From an uncultured Eubacteriales bacterium (GTDB lineage: Bacteria; Bacillota; Sulfobacillia; Fermentithermobacillales; Fermentithermobacillaceae): a stretch of 48,467 nt of DNA. The notes under the pieces are model-generated. The model worked only from the letters and a program-made list of their open reading frames with translations. It was not told where the DNA came from and ran no database searches. This document shows positions 29,007 to 37,570 of this stretch, one piece after another. Made by a program: the position numbers and the translations under genes. The stretch is from the NCBI GenBank assembly GCA_964643285.1, contig CAZXSP010000002.1, forward strand, positions 1 to 48,467, given 5' to 3'. The first letter of the stretch is position 1; each line of letters opens with the position of its first letter.

Positions 29007-29144
29007 AAAACGAAGACGGGATTTATCTTGCTTATGTTGCCGTGACAACTCTTTTTGTCGGAAAGGCCTTCAACAAATGACCGCCGTATACCCCGTAAAG
29101 CCGGTGATACCAGCTTTTTAAAAAACAGCAAAAGGGGTGTCGGG

Positions 29145-29612
29145 ATGCCACTAGTAGCAAAGGGCGGCAAATACATCTTTGGTTGGTCAAGGGTAAACGA
29201 TGACCTAAGCATACAGTTACCCAAACCGGCCGTTGACGAATATGCGATAACGGCAGAAGGCAAAGTGATACTTATTTCCGGAAGCAAAAGGACAGGCGGT
29301 TTTGTAGTTACAAGGAAAGGGTTGTTGCTCGCCTCAAAAATAGGAAACATCCTAAAAGAGAATCCCAGTCTATCTAGATATGAAACCGAGGAAGGGGAAT
29401 TTACTAAATACAAAGGGCGTTTGTATTGCTGGCACGGATTGTCAGGAACAGGAATGCTGAAGATGAACGAAAAAATGATCGAGGTATTAGATATCGGTGC
29501 AGGCGATATGCTTCTTTCGATTAGGAGCAGTGATATCGCGTTTTGCATGGGCCAAAAAGGCATATTGATCGAAAGGGCCCGAAAATATCAAGACGAAATA
29601 GTTGTTTACTGA
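29145..29612 (+). CDS. hypothetical protein with two putative SpoVT/AbrB-like repeats
   Basis: 155 aa from ATG 29145 (SD AAGGGGTG); the track ORF starts at TTG 29055. Segments LSIQLPKPAVDEYAITAEGKVILISG and LKMNEKMIEVLDIGAGDMLLSIRS resemble swapped-hairpin AbrB/MazE motifs. No family recognised with certainty. Confidence 0.35.
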   Translation: MPLVAKGGKYIFGWSRVNDDLSIQLPKPAVDEYAITAEGKVILISGSKRTGGFVVTRKGLLLASKIGNILKENPSLSRYETEEGEFTKYKGRLYCWHGLSGTGMLKMNEKMIEVLDIGAGDMLLSIRSSDIAFCMGQKGILIERARKYQDEIVVY

Positions 29613-29730: not shown

Positions 29731-29848
29731 CCGGTGCTGAAAATTTGGGCACCCCCTTCGCCAGCATGCTGAAATATTCAGCATCAGTTTGAATCCGGTG
29801 CTGAAAATTTGGGCACTTCCTTCGGTGACATGCTGAAATATTCAGCAC
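29731..29848. repeat. two tandem 54-bp direct repeats (64-bp period) carrying four 17-bp palindrome-like sites at 32-bp phasing
   Basis: R1 (29731..29784) is CCGGTGCTGAAAATTTGGGCACCCCCTTCGCCAGCATGCTGAAATATTCAGCAT. R2 (29795..29848) is CCGGTGCTGAAAATTTGGGCACTTCCTTCGGTGACATGCTGAAATATTCAGCAC. The sites start at 29735, 29767, 29799 and 29831. Confidence 0.9.
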
Positions 29849-29957
29849 ATGCCAACTGGTGCGAACCATATCACCAAATCTTCGCTGTAACAAACTTGTT
29901 CTCGTGTGATATAATTGTATCAATTAGTGCGTTTGTTCTGGTGATAAGCATATAATA

Positions 29958-30251
29958 GTGTCGGTGGCGTTCGTGCGAGAATACAATCTGGGATCGGATC
30001 GCCAGAAACAGATTCTCCTGCAGATCGAAATCGAAGATTTCTGCTACACGCTTCAAAACAGGAACATTGGGTTTGAGCATGAGGTTCTATATGTGTTTTG
30101 TCCCCAGGTTACCCTTTTTAACTTTGACGGTGAGAAGAAGCAGGTGGATGTTTATACCAAGTTCAATATCGTCGATTTGAATCCGGGAAACCGCGTTGTC
30201 GTCATTTCGTTCCATGAGCGCAAAAAGCCGATTACTCATTTTTTCAGATGA
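29958..30251 (+). CDS. putative MqsR-family (RelE-fold) toxin
   Basis: 97 aa. EDFCYTL...VDVYTKFNIVDLNPGNRVVVISFHERK resembles E. coli MqsR SDFYKSM...QVYLKITVIHDVLIVSFKEK. Toxin-first gene order as in mqsRA. There is no in-frame ATG; candidate starts are GTG 29958, 29964 or 29973. Confidence 0.55.
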   Translation: MSVAFVREYNLGSDRQKQILLQIEIEDFCYTLQNRNIGFEHEVLYVFCPQVTLFNFDGEKKQVDVYTKFNIVDLNPGNRVVVISFHERKKPITHFFR

Positions 30252-30283
30252 GGAGTCAGATCTTTCCAGAGGGGGGAGTTGTT

Positions 30284-31282
30284 ATGAGCAAGCAGATCGT
30301 TTTTTGCCCTGAATGCAGGCAGGACGTGAAATATACGGTGAAAACTGAATTGGAATCTGCTGAATTGAAAGGCGAAGTCTACGAGTTCGCGGCACAAACG
30401 GCTTACTGTGAGCAGTGTGCGCAGGAGGTTTACGTCGCAGAGTTTGAGGATGCTAATTTGAAGGCACTATATGATGCATACCGTAAGAAAAACGGAATCA
30501 TCTCGCTCGAGGATATCCGAGCTATTCCTGAGAAGTACAGTATTGGGAAAAGACCATTGTCCCTTTTATTGGGATGGGGAGAGCAAACTTTCAGCCGTTA
30601 TTATGAGGGCGATATGCCCACAACGCAATATTCTGAAATTTTAAAGCAGATCTTTGCGGATCCCAACCGCTATCTTTCCGTATTAGAAAAAAATAAGGAG
30701 AACCTTAGAAGCGAACAGGCCTATAAGAAGAGCAAATCTGCAACAGAAAGACTCATGGGCGTTACGATTACACAACAAAAGGCAAAAATTGATGTGGTTG
30801 TGGATTATTTCTTATCCAAATGCAGGGATATTACACCGCTGTCTTTGCAGAAGGCGCTCTATTATGCTCAGGGATTTTTCTATGTTTTTCATGGGGCCTA
30901 CCTGTTCTCGGAGGATTGCGAGGCCTGGGTGCATGGTCCAGCGTACCCTAAGATCTACCGACGTTACAGAAACTACTATTTTGACCCTATCGACAGTGTG
31001 GCCGAACCGGACACATCGGCTCTATCAGGGGAAGAGCAGCTGCTTCTGGATAGTATAGTGAAACACGTTTGCTGCTATAGCGGGAAGACTTTGGAGGCCT
31101 TTACCCACACCGAAACACCTTGGGTTATGGCCCGGGCTGGGCTTCCGGGTGATGTTTCATCAAATCGCCTCATAACGAAAAAAGCCATTGGGGAGTTCTT
31201 CATTTTGGTAAAAGAAAAGTACCGTATGCTCACGCCCGCAAATATTAGGGACTATACACGGGATCTATTTACACAGATTTAG
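30284..31282 (+). CDS. composite antitoxin: MqsA-like zinc ribbon + XRE-type HTH fused to a C-terminal DUF4065/Panacea (SocA/GepA-like) domain
   Basis: Zinc ribbon CPEC...CEQC. HTH KRPLSLLLGWGEQTFSRYYEGDMPTTQYSEILKQI resembles MqsA LSLTQKEAAEIFGGGVNAFSRYEKGNAQP. C-terminal LSLQKALYYAQGFFYVFHGAYLFSEDCEAWVHGPAYPKIYRRY is typical of DUF4065. ATG 30284 follows SD GAGGGGGGAG. The alternative ATG 30248 overlaps the toxin stop (ATGA). Confidence 0.7.
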   Translation: MSKQIVFCPECRQDVKYTVKTELESAELKGEVYEFAAQTAYCEQCAQEVYVAEFEDANLKALYDAYRKKNGIISLEDIRAIPEKYSIGKRPLSLLLGWGEQTFSRYYEGDMPTTQYSEILKQIFADPNRYLSVLEKNKENLRSEQAYKKSKSATERLMGVTITQQKAKIDVVVDYFLSKCRDITPLSLQKALYYAQGFFYVFHGAYLFSEDCEAWVHGPAYPKIYRRYRNYYFDPIDSVAEPDTSALSGEEQLLLDSIVKHVCCYSGKTLEAFTHTETPWVMARAGLPGDVSSNRLITKKAIGEFFILVKEKYRMLTPANIRDYTRDLFTQI

Positions 31283-33141: not shown

Positions 33142-34975
33142 ATGGTGTCCGGTGGTTTTTACGGCGACGACATAGTCGAGGAAGTTAAGGCTAAATCCGA
33201 TATTGTCTCGGTAATCTCCGAGTATGTGGCCCTCAAGAAAGCGGGCCGCGGTTACATCGGGCTATGCCCTTTCCATCAAGAAAAAACCCCCTCGTTTAAT
33301 GTGGACCCGGACAAGCAGTTTTTCTACTGTTTCGGTTGCGGCACGGGCGGTAATGTTTTTACCTTTTTGATGAAAAAAAACGGGCTGTCCTTCCCTGAAG
33401 CCCTGAAACTTTTGGCGGATAGGGCAGGCGTGCGTCTGCCCGAGTCGCGCGCGGGGTCTTCGAGGCAACGAAAACTAAAGCAAAAACTCGAGGCGGCGCT
33501 GGCCTTTGCCGCGACAAAATATACGGAACAATTAAACTCCCAACGAGGCGAGTTTGCCAGGAACTACCTGGAAAAACGCGGTTTTTCAAAACAAACGATT
33601 GAAAAATTCCAATTGGGATTTGCCCCGGATGAATGGGACTTCATGGCGACTTTAGCGAAACGGATGGGTGTTGAAATAGCCGACTTGGAGAAAGCCGGGC
33701 TCTTAGTGGCCAGGCAAAGCGGGGGTTTTTACGATAGGTTCAGAAACAGGATAATGTTCCCTATATGGAATTCCGGGGGCGATCCCATAGGTTTCGGCGG
33801 CAGGGCTTTGGGCGACGACCCGGCCAAGTACCTGAACAGCCCCGAAACCCCGCTATTTCACAAAGGAAAAGAGCTTTATGGTTTGAACCTTGCCAAGCCT
33901 TCTATTAGAAGCAACGATAAAGTGTTGTTGGTGGAAGGCTACATGGATGTTATCTCCTGTTTTCAGCATGGGGTATTTCTCGGTGGCGGGAATGGGTACT
34001 GCGCTAACCCCGGAGCAGGCCAGAAGTCTCCTGCTTCTAACCCAAAACATATATCTTGCGTATGACCAAGATGAAGCCGGCAAAAAGGCAGCCCGCAGGA
34101 CTATCGATTTGTTCCGTGACCAAGGAGGCCGATGTAGCGTAGTTGTGTTTGAAGGTGCGAAGGACCCTGACGAATTTCTCAAAACTCACGGGGCTTCTTT
34201 GTTTAAGGAGCGTATGGAAAAGGCTCTCTTGGATATAAGCTTCATTTACGAACAAACAAAAGAGTCTTTGGATGCGTCTACTATTCAAGGGAAACTTGAG
34301 ATTCAGAGGGCTATAGTCCCGGTTTTGGCTTCGCTGGAAAGCGAGTTCGAGCGCTCTGTATATACTGAGGAGATATCTAGGGATCTTGGGGTTGGGAAGG
34401 ATTCCCTCCATAAGGATGTCGAATTGTACAAGAGGAAGGACTATCGGGCTTCAAGGTATAAAAAGGGTGAAAATCGGGATACTACTGGTTATGACAACCA
34501 GCTCAAAGCCGGTTCCGGCAAGGATTCTGTCAAAGCGTCTGTATCTTTGGCAGGAACCCGGGGCGGGCATGTCGAAGAAAACGTGACTCGCCGAAAGGCG
34601 GAAGAAGGAATAATTAGATGTTTGGTAGAAAAGCCTGCATTATTCGATTCGCTTAAAGACGAATTGTGCCAGGACGATATTGAGGATGTAAATTGCCGTT
34701 TGGCATTTTCGATATTGAAGGATGGCCCAATTGCCGAAGATAATGATGGTCTTTTAGCTTGGGTCGCAGAATTATGCATAAAGTTCGGACCGGTAGCGAA
34801 GCCCGAGCGTATATTGAGGGACTGTCTTAAAAGATTGCAGGAGATTCAGCTTGTCGAACTTAGCCAGAAGATGGCTGACGCTGAACGTAAAAAAGATGAA
34901 AAGGCACTCGTTATCATTCAGGGCGACTATCAAAGATTGTTGAAACAAGTGAAATCAGTCGGCGGCACTGGTTAA
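33142..34975 (+). pseudogene. dnaG: DNA primase DnaG, reading frame broken inside the TOPRIM domain (true pseudogene, sequencing indel or recoding not distinguishable)
   Basis: ORF 33142..34065 carries the zinc finger CPFHQEKTPSF...CFGCG, the RNA polymerase domain and LLVEGYMDVISCFQHGV. The continuation SVAGMGTALTPEQARSLL...YLAYDQDEAGKKAA lies in the frame of ORF 33890..34975. The junction is within GTATTTCTCG (33973..33982), which is 10 nt where 9 or 12 would keep the frame. Confidence 0.85.
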
Positions 34976-36334: not shown

Positions 36335-36405
36335 GCTGTTCCTATTGGTCTTGTTGTCCCTTCCACGCAATGTCTGCTATGCTAAAGGTTGGAGTAAACA
36401 CGTGT

Positions 36406-37047
36406 ATGGGGGCGATTTTAACGGGTTCTTTGTCTACAAGTCAAAGTACGTCGAAAAATCTCGCTAAACCAGTAGTACCTCTGCCAGACCTGTTCTGGAG
36501 CTTCCTCAAGATCGGAGCCTTCACTTTCGGAGGGGGCTGGGCCATGATTCCCCTAATCCGCAAAGAGCTTGTAAACACCAAGGGCTGGTGCGATGATCAG
36601 AAATTCGTGGACATGCTGTCTATCGCACAAAGCGGCCCCGGCCCTATAGTGGTCAATACCGCTACCATTATCGGCCTCAAAATTCGGAAAATCCCCGGAG
36701 CTGTAGTGGCCGTGCTTGGTTCTGTTCTTCCTTCGTTTCTGCTCATCTTTTCTTTGGCGGCCTTCTTGGCGAAATTCCAAAGTTCGAGTATTCTCGGAGC
36801 AGTTTTCTTGGGTATGCGCCCCGCCATATTTGGACTTTTGTTGAGCGCCAGTTTGCAGGTGAGTACCACCTGTATCGATAGTAGAAGGGATGCGCTGTTT
36901 GCGCTGGCGGCAGTGGTTTTGGTGGTGTTCTTCAAGTTTAATCCTATTTTTGTGGTGCTATTCGCCGGGCTGGCGGGAATTCTTTTTGGGAAGGGTTCAC
37001 GTTTTGCGGAGTGCGAATCCAACGTGTCGGAAACCAAGGAGTCTTAA
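36406..37047 (+). CDS. chrA: chromate transporter family protein (short-chain CHR, first half of a pair)
   Basis: FLKIGAFTFGGGWAMIPLIRKELVNTKGW...DMLSIAQSGPGPIVVN. The start could be 36370 or ATG 36406. Confidence 0.82.
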   Translation: MGAILTGSLSTSQSTSKNLAKPVVPLPDLFWSFLKIGAFTFGGGWAMIPLIRKELVNTKGWCDDQKFVDMLSIAQSGPGPIVVNTATIIGLKIRKIPGAVVAVLGSVLPSFLLIFSLAAFLAKFQSSSILGAVFLGMRPAIFGLLLSASLQVSTTCIDSRRDALFALAAVVLVVFFKFNPIFVVLFAGLAGILFGKGSRFAECESNVSETKES

Positions 37048-37051
37048 TATC

Positions 37052-37570
37052 ATGTATGCTGATCTGTTTTTTACATTTTTTAAAATAGGCGCTTTCAGTT
37101 TTGGAGGCGGCTACGCCATGATACCCCTTATTACCAAGGAGGTTGTGGAGAAAAAATCTTGGCTCCCCATGACCGAATTCGTGGATGTCATAGCCATTTC
37201 CCAAGGTACTCCCGGACCTATTGCGATAAACGCCGCAACATACGTCGGGCACAAAGTGGCCGGGTTCATGGGCTCGGCGGCGGCTACTGTAGGAGTGGTC
37301 TTGCCCTCCTTTATCATAATGTTGGTTTTTGGAGCCCTATTTCTAAAATACTGTAGGGTTCCCTGGGTCTCAAATATGATCAAAGGCATCCGGCCTGTGG
37401 TGGTAGCATTAATCGCAGCGGCTGCTTTTTCGGTTGCACCGTCTTCCATTACGGGTCCTTTTGCGGCTGTAGTAGCGCTGGCTGTTGTGGTTCTTATCGT
37501 AAAGTTTAAAGTGGACCCTATAATTCTCCTGGTGGCTTCGGGTCTGTTGGGCATAGTTCTGTACCGGTGA
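37052..37570 (+). CDS. chrA: chromate transporter family protein (short-chain CHR, second half of a pair)
   Basis: FFKIGAFSFGGGYAMIPLITKEVVEKKSWL...AISQGTPGPIAINAATYVG. ATG 37052 follows SD AAGGAG, 4 nt after the upstream stop. Confidence 0.85.
   Translation: MYADLFFTFFKIGAFSFGGGYAMIPLITKEVVEKKSWLPMTEFVDVIAISQGTPGPIAINAATYVGHKVAGFMGSAAATVGVVLPSFIIMLVFGALFLKYCRVPWVSNMIKGIRPVVVALIAAAAFSVAPSSITGPFAAVVALAVVVLIVKFKVDPIILLVASGLLGIVLYR

Follow-up and report, generated by a model that had tools for sequence, protein, structure and literature searches.

A probably decaying MqsR-type PanAT module, with a 5′-truncated toxin remnant and an intact antitoxin, in an uncultured Eubacteriales bacterium

The DNA analysed here, referred to throughout as the window, is a stretch of 48,467 nucleotides from an uncultured Eubacteriales bacterium (GenBank assembly GCA_964643285.1, contig CAZXSP010000002.1, positions 1 to 48,467 of the forward strand), and the element in question is a pair of plus-strand open reading frames (ORFs) that a first-pass annotation, made from the sequence alone, had described as an MqsR-like toxin followed by a three-module antitoxin. 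Both ORFs are present, at 29958-30251 (97 amino acids, GTG start) and 30248-31282 (344 amino acids as listed), and the class assigned to them holds, namely an MqsR-like toxin gene placed first and an antitoxin combining an MqsA-type zinc-binding domain (ZBD), a helix-turn-helix (HTH) and a Panacea domain. What does not hold is the view of the two as a working toxin–antitoxin pair, as the toxin ORF is truncated at its 5′ end, a defect that had been missed, and is probably not functional. The locus is very likely a decaying MqsR-type PanAT module, in which the toxin gene survives as a beheaded, promoterless remnant and the antitoxin is intact and probably still expressed and autoregulated.

As reconstructed here, the locus would be a degenerate copy of a known module in which a toxin of the MqsR superfamily (PanT cluster T2 / MqsR_D2) precedes a ZBD-HTH-Panacea antitoxin of the PanA type. 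One deletion of about 150 bp took out the −10 box, the 5′ untranslated region (UTR) including the ribosome-binding site, the start codon and toxin codons 1-42, and it is most likely that no functional toxin is made from the 94 codons left. The antitoxin gene is intact, with its own ribosome-binding site and the operator retained. Its transcription probably continues from an extended −10 promoter a short way upstream, and its product would then be an orphan antitoxin and autorepressor.

Truncation of the toxin gene and its promoter

When 136-residue homologues were compared with the window by tblastn, the match began at position 29967, equivalent to residue 43 of the family, and ran through residues 43-136 at 79% identity to a full-length relative (P0002). 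Toxin residues 1-42 are encoded in no frame anywhere in the window, which rules out a frameshift as the source of the short ORF. The 97-residue ORF taken alone has no match in Pfam, NCBIfam, PADLOC or the PDB sequences, while PHROG 34059, a family of unknown function, matches it at profile positions 39-129 of 131. A total of 430 homologues were detected, and 105 of the best 120 are 133-137 residues long with a conserved N-terminus, in which M1, Y5, N6, Y9, L18, I21, N35, R38 and N41 are invariant or nearly so. In the AlphaFold2 model of the family, the 42 residues missing from the window contribute a long helix at 11-26, a strand at 30-32 and a portion of another helix. The retained part has also diverged, with nine deviations at columns conserved in at least 80% of relatives (mean 2.98, standard deviation 1.98), a count reached by only one of 105 relatives. 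Judged from these sequence comparisons, the 97-residue ORF corresponds to the last 94 codons (3′ end) in a family of 136-codon genes and is a remnant rather than a complete gene. It ends 32 nt before the antitoxin gene, and no good Shine-Dalgarno sequence precedes either of its potential start codons, GTG 29958 and GTG 29973.

Upstream DNA was compared across about 60 non-redundant intact related loci, and these share a strongly conserved layout. A palindrome (TGyAyyAATTrrTrCA) comes first and is separated by 5-7 nt from a sigma-70 promoter, whose −35 box (TTGACA) and −10 box (TATCAT) stand 17 nt apart, the spacer usually including GCATATAATA. About 25 nt with GGAGG then lead to the ATG of the toxin. 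The 16-bp palindrome was found at this position in 36 of the 60 loci. The window retains it as TGTATCAATTAGTGCG, which differs from the TGTATCAATTAGTGCA of three related loci (L063, L064 and L073) at the last base only. Its −35 box has degenerated (TTCTGG versus TTGACA in about 55 relatives), and most of the spacer that follows is still recognisable. In relatives, the −10 box (TATCAT or TATGAT) stands directly after this spacer. It is missing in the window, together with the 5′ UTR and its GGAGG, the ATG and codons 1-42, such that the sequence jumps from the spacer to codon 43. The retention of the spacer with codon 43 directly after it points to a single deletion of about 150 bp. Upstream of the locus, the only promoter-like match on the plus strand is the GTAACA/TATAAT site with an extended −10, which is the candidate promoter of the antitoxin gene.

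Among the relatives, one sub-clade (20 of the 60 non-redundant loci) has another inverted repeat, TGTATCAC-N6-GTGATACA, which is situated downstream of the −10 box and upstream of the toxin ATG and extends across the ribosome-binding site. It occurs in L029 (1918-1939), L026, L027, L031-L034, L036, L037, L039-L041, L045, L049, L053, L054, L067 and L075. Its half-sites match those of the upstream palindrome, and the repeat may serve as a second operator or as a hairpin occluding the Shine-Dalgarno sequence. The region equivalent to it is deleted in the window.

The likeness of the C-terminal half of the toxin ORF to Escherichia coli MqsR had initially been drawn by eye. The ORF itself does not match the Pfam family MqsR_toxin (PF15723), but the likeness was weakly reproduced once the whole family was considered. 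For example, the full-length relative P0002 covers positions 5-95 of the 95-position PF15723 profile at 15.4 bits, below the cutoff of 26.2. When 1.84 billion cluster representatives were searched, the toxin family grew to 571 clusters, and 16 of 51 divergent members match PF15723 (best E = 3.5e-6) with no other Pfam family recurring and nothing recurrent in NCBIfam. Similarly, when a profile of the 51 members was aligned with E. coli MqsR by hhalign (E = 3.8e-4), family residues 17-126 were placed against MqsR 9-97, pairing EDFC with SDFY, VYTKF with VYLKI (which includes the catalytic-region tyrosine) and VISFHE with IVSFKE. The toxin residues missing from the window pair with MqsR 9 to about 33, and because the alignment spans nearly the full length of MqsR, the 42 lost residues would represent about its first third and not a dispensable extension. 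A search of the PDB sequences with the family profile did not find MqsR. Membership of the MqsR superfamily is also supported by the MqsA-like partner and by the toxin-first order. Overall, the link between the toxin family and MqsR is weak but coherent by sequence, and a fold search (described below) did not confirm it. One NCBI record carries the label 'PBECR3 domain-containing', which was not adopted, as Pfam gave no PBECR3 match.

The antitoxin and related modules

The downstream gene had been given as 332-344 codons long. In all close homologues the start corresponds to the ATG at 30284, which has the Shine-Dalgarno sequence GAGGGGGGAG before it, and the antitoxin is therefore 332 residues long and not 344. 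The CPEC...CEQC zinc ribbon and XRE-type HTH, both likened to MqsA in the first-pass annotation, were borne out: NCBIfam TIGR03830 matches residues 20-142 of the 344-residue form at 71.6 bits (cutoff 61.8), all four cysteines are invariant among 30 homologues, and phmmer aligns the HTH region to that of E. coli MqsA, although the Pfam MqsA family (PF15731) falls slightly under its cutoff (26.5 versus 30 bits). The DUF4065/Panacea module was likewise confirmed by PF13274 (E = 2.2e-16, 61.2 bits, cutoff 25.7), and phrog_1281 and phrog_10390 match the same part of the protein.

An AlphaFold2 model built on the 30 homologues has a mean predicted local distance difference test (pLDDT) score of 90.2 and resolves three separate modules, consisting of a zinc domain with beta strands at 5-8, 13-28 and 31-42 (pLDDT >90), helices throughout residues 52-157 and a confidently modelled Panacea part. 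The last is joined by a disordered linker at about 158-167 (pLDDT <50 at 161-165). When the model was compared with the PDB by Foldseek, the sole significant match was E. coli MqsA (3gn5, E = 1e-4, probability 1.0, 132 of 132 columns), with the HTH also matching the MqsA C-terminal domain (3fmy) and the HTH of HigA2, while no solved structure in the PDB matched the Panacea part. The best 120 antitoxin homologues are mostly 329-335 residues long (111 of them 328-335), and most contain both Pfam domains. At columns conserved in at least 80% of relatives, the window antitoxin deviates 14 times (mean 8.86, standard deviation 5.5), a count that 22 of 111 relatives equal or exceed. Constraint on the antitoxin is thus unremarkable and gives no sign of relaxation.

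Related loci were taken from 80 species-representative genomes encoding the antitoxin, 76 of which contain enough upstream DNA to be judged. The architecture is common, and about 62 of the 76 loci encode a full-length toxin match directly upstream, with a few more matching from within the first 30 residues. In Syntrophobotulus glycolicus and its metagenomic relatives, a 136-codon gene is followed 30-43 nt on by a 332-codon gene, and the toxin-first order is common to about 70 relatives and the window. Neighbouring genes vary between loci, which indicates that the pair is an autonomous two-gene cassette. In about 10 of the 76 loci the toxin is disrupted or missing and the antitoxin intact, and decay of the kind seen in the window is a common fate of the module. 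One such locus (L085) was considered as possibly sharing the window's deletion, since its toxin match starts from residue 42, but this was ruled out, the cause being a frameshift in an A-run. In another (L035, from a long-read Bacillota metagenome-assembled genome (MAG)), a transposase- or integrase-like ORF at 1502-2215 replaces the toxin, with only the last seven toxin codons left and an intact antitoxin at 2501.

Table 1 Features of the locus in window coordinates, and related loci (L numbers) in which the toxin is disrupted or missing
Feature or locus	Position	Strand	Evidence or state
Promoter-like site GTAACA-17 nt-TATAAT with TG extended −10; candidate antitoxin promoter	29887..29915	+	Consensus match 10/12 with TG
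Operator-like palindrome TGTATCAATTAGTGCG; retained O1 site of the native promoter	29915..29930	.	Conserved in related loci
Native promoter spacer remnant AAGCATATAATAGTGT	29946..29961	+	Identical to the spacer of L015 and L017; about 70% conserved in the family
Deletion junction; about 150 bp gone relative to intact relatives	29962..29966	+	tblastn, DNA alignment and upstream comparison agree
MqsR-like PanT toxin remnant, codons 43-136 and TGA	29967..30251	+	79% identity to P0002; mechanical ORF 29958-30251
Antitoxin Shine-Dalgarno sequence GAGGGGGGAG	30269..30278	+	Read from the sequence; GGGGGGA / GGAGGA in L001, L003
Antitoxin residues 1-50, MqsA-type ZBD (Cys8, Cys11, Cys42, Cys45)	30284..30433	+	TIGR03830, AlphaFold2, fold match 3gn5
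Antitoxin residues 52-157, helical linker and XRE-type HTH	30437..30754	+	TIGR03830, PF15731, phmmer, AlphaFold2, Foldseek
Antitoxin residues 168-332 and stop, Panacea (DUF4065/SocA-like) domain	30785..31282	+	PF13274, phrog_1281, phrog_10390, AlphaFold2
L018			Toxin internal deletion, antitoxin intact
L047			Toxin 5′ half only, antitoxin intact
L060, L077			No toxin, antitoxin intact
L025, L042, L044, L061, L085			Toxin frameshifts, antitoxin intact; some may be MAG sequencing errors

An MqsR-like toxin encoded beside a zinc-ribbon/HTH/Panacea antitoxin is a module type that has already been catalogued and studied experimentally, contrary to the first-pass view that this architecture was uncharacterised. 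Kurata et al. 2022 (PMC8832971) named the Panacea domain, reported an N-terminal HTH in 343 PanA proteins and found MqsR-like to be the commonest recognisable toxin domain beside PanA (n = 90), and they also concluded that protease-adaptor action is not the general PanA mechanism. Their Dataset S1 includes an Acetobacterium wieringae pair that is orthologous to the window pair, as well as S. glycolicus WP_013624377.1 (PanA, HTH) with WP_013624376.1, which is placed in cluster T2, assigned by CDD to the 'MqsR superfamily' and arranged T|A with a gap of 32 nt. The same dataset also lists HTH-PanA proteins with 'no_PanT', for example from D. hafniense. The S. glycolicus proteins are direct orthologues of the window pair (72% identity for the toxin and 80% for the antitoxin), with the same gene order and 32-nt gap and a palindrome, TGTATCAATTAGTACA, nearly the same as that of the window. 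The T2 members differ in having the full 136-residue toxin, and their sub-family is a computational prediction.

The architecture was dissected by Ernits et al. 2023 (PMC10440598), who validated MqsR_D2:PanA pairs from Bacillus fungorum and Lactobacillus rossiae, annotated 'Panacea; ZBD (MqsA); HTH', by showing growth arrest and its rescue by the antitoxin. Truncations of the B. fungorum antitoxin showed that the ZBD or ZBD-HTH neutralises the toxin and that Panacea alone or HTH-Panacea does not, and a sensor role was proposed for the Panacea domain. As published, these systems resemble the window in having the toxin first and an antitoxin with an N-terminal MqsA-type ZBD, an HTH and a C-terminal Panacea domain. 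The boundary between ZBD-HTH and the rest is also similar (construct 1-174 in B. fungorum, about 158-167 in the window antitoxin), as is the catalytic-region tyrosine (Y97 in the B. fungorum toxin, Y105 in the window's family), and the published toxins are assigned to the MqsR superfamily, to which the window's family is weakly linked by sequence. The window differs in having lost toxin codons 1-42, the −10 box and the ribosome-binding site, and it probably encodes no functional pair. By analogy with the B. fungorum system, in an intact module the ZBD would bind and neutralise an RNase toxin, an HTH dimer on the palindrome would autoregulate the operon, and the Panacea domain would be an accessory, possibly sensory, part rather than the neutraliser. 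The earlier suggestion that the antitoxin might neutralise its toxin by two routes is contradicted by the truncations in this relative.

The E. coli MqsR/MqsA system (3gn5, 3hi2, 3o9x) shares with the window's family the toxin-first order, an antitoxin with zinc ribbon and HTH, and a palindrome at the promoter, to which binding is predicted. The toxin family aligns with MqsR over its full length at weak significance, but is longer (136 versus 98 residues), scores below the Pfam MqsR cutoff and has His or Tyr in place of Lys56 and His in place of Lys96. MqsA lacks the Panacea domain, and the 332-residue window antitoxin has about 165 residues in addition to the canonical ZBD and HTH of about 130. 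The operator sequences also differ, with the palindrome of E. coli mqsRA being ACCT-N-AGGT. The type VI system SocAB of Caulobacter crescentus, in which SocA is a ClpXP adaptor, shares the DUF4065/Panacea domain with the window antitoxin, on which the SocA model NF047745 scores 45.1 bits (cutoff 190). SocA has neither ZBD nor HTH, and the window locus has no SocB-like toxin, the upstream gene being unrelated to SocB.

Alternative readings of the locus

Several observations weigh against the reading of a decaying module. All 94 homologous toxin codons are open, with no stop or frameshift, and the invariant Y105, K107 and H125 are kept, so the deletion must either be recent or the fragment be under some selection. 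Either GTG could initiate translation, the one at 29973 behind a weak GGTGG, and the gene caller predicted a 92-residue product from the latter. The replacement promoter is a consensus match only, in a region where promoter-like sites are no more numerous than expected from shuffled sequence. In addition, the contig is not error-free, because the essential gene dnaG appears to be frameshifted at a run of four G residues (GGGG, 33970-33973), although a 150-bp deletion does not belong to that type of error. Finally, a Foldseek search of the PDB with the AlphaFold2 model of the full-length toxin (pLDDT 80.9) recovered no MqsR and only weak NTF2-like similarity (TM score about 0.3), while a search of viral models gave one match (TM score 0.55), a phage protein of 124 residues.

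The open frame and its catalytic-region residues would also fit an intact working pair, in which a naturally short MqsR-like toxin of 92-97 residues, started from GTG, would be counteracted by the three-module antitoxin. With 98 residues, E. coli MqsR is also short, the 32-nt intergenic gap is preserved and the short protein was called as a gene. However, most of the closest homologues are of full length with a conserved N-terminus, and the family aligns with MqsR in such a way that the window copy lacks about the first third of the toxin, rather than an extension peculiar to the family. The native −10 box, ribosome-binding site and ATG are deleted, neither GTG has a good Shine-Dalgarno sequence, and substitutions at conserved columns are in excess, all of which make a working short toxin unlikely. 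It is also very improbable that the truncation is an artefact of assembly or sequencing and that the real genome carries a complete 136-codon toxin gene. The frameshift in dnaG and the finding that the window toxin and antitoxin proteins occur on this one contig only, among 15 billion proteins, would be compatible with such an error, but a clean loss of about 150 bp, flanked to either side by unique sequence, is not what homopolymer indels give rise to, and no repeat flanks the junction that could have collapsed in assembly. Moreover, the −35 box beside the junction has degenerated too, indicating real decay, and deletions of the toxin gene are real in other genomes.

A further reading, conceivable but doubtful, is that the orphan antitoxin persists because it has an independent function, either in anti-addiction against MqsR-like toxins encoded elsewhere or on mobile elements, or as a Panacea-dependent sensor or regulator. 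This reading refines the explanation of a decaying module and does not exclude it. The unrelaxed antitoxin with its ribosome-binding site and operator kept, the ZBD-HTH-Panacea genes without an adjacent toxin in three related loci (L060, L077 and L035), the 'no_PanT' entries in the Kurata dataset and the sensory Panacea domain proposed by Ernits et al. are all in line with it. However, the 48-kb window contains no second MqsR-like gene, a recent deletion equally predicts an intact antitoxin, and no experiment assigns a function to any orphan PanA. It is also improbable that the 92-97-residue GTG product, which would lack the N-terminal helix and strand, retains a weakened toxicity or binds the ZBD as a non-toxic ligand (a co-repressor or decoy) and so tunes the orphan antitoxin, or that the orphan is retained as an anti-addiction factor or sensor against MqsR-type modules. 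Readings of this kind, with a living fragment or a retained orphan, are compatible with the open frame, the catalytic-region residues, the intact antitoxin and the retained operator.

Genomic setting and significance

The locus is richer in AT than its surroundings, as had been suggested from spot checks, with a GC content of 0.44-0.45 versus 0.504 and 0.507 in the flanks. It lies in an accessory, lower-GC block of about 6 kb, bounded by ppdK and by the dgt-dnaG-sigA genes, which also encodes an SLH-domain protein, an AraC/glyoxalase regulator, a GNAT acetyltransferase and a CAAX-protease-like gene. Directly upstream, a 345-bp non-coding gap separates the toxin–antitoxin remnant from a plus-strand ORF of 185 codons (29055-29612), which has no match in Pfam, NCBIfam or the PHROGs. 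This gap contains two copies of a tandem 64-bp unit (29731-29847), 64 nt apart and 89% identical over 53 aligned nucleotides, and both include GGTGCTGAAAATTTGGGCAC together with an inverted repeat, ATGCTGAA-ata-TTCAGCAT. The folding of the tandem repeat is moderately good (z = −2.7). Nothing in Rfam matches it, it occurs nowhere else in the window, and it could be an array of regulator-binding sites. Exact matches to its 20-mer were absent from the metagenome contigs scanned, and its 19-mer palindrome gave 45 scattered single matches, mostly in human-gut contigs, that look like chance.

Further downstream, dnaG (33142-34975) is split by a one-base frameshift at or near the GGGG run into an N-terminal ORF (33142-34065) with zinc-ribbon and DNAG_N domains and a C-terminal ORF (33890-34975) with Toprim and DnaB-binding domains, which is most likely a homopolymer sequencing error. 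Two adjoining chromate-transporter (PF02417) ORFs, 36370-37047 and 36890-37570, overlap by about 160 nt as listed and are probably an ordinary short-chain ChrA pair, in which the listed start of the second ORF is too far upstream.

Beyond annotation the meaning of the locus is small, as the architecture has been published and the published PanAT catalogue already includes this sub-family. The 92-97-residue ORF is better recorded as a 5′-truncated toxin pseudogene, and the gene after it as a probably orphan antitoxin of the PanA/MqsA family. Two results of the comparison may nevertheless be useful to the field, namely the promoter and operator layout of the family, in which a 16-bp palindrome lies next to the −35 box and one sub-clade has another inverted repeat across the ribosome-binding site, and the estimate that in about one of every eight related loci an intact antitoxin gene accompanies a toxin gene that is disrupted or missing.

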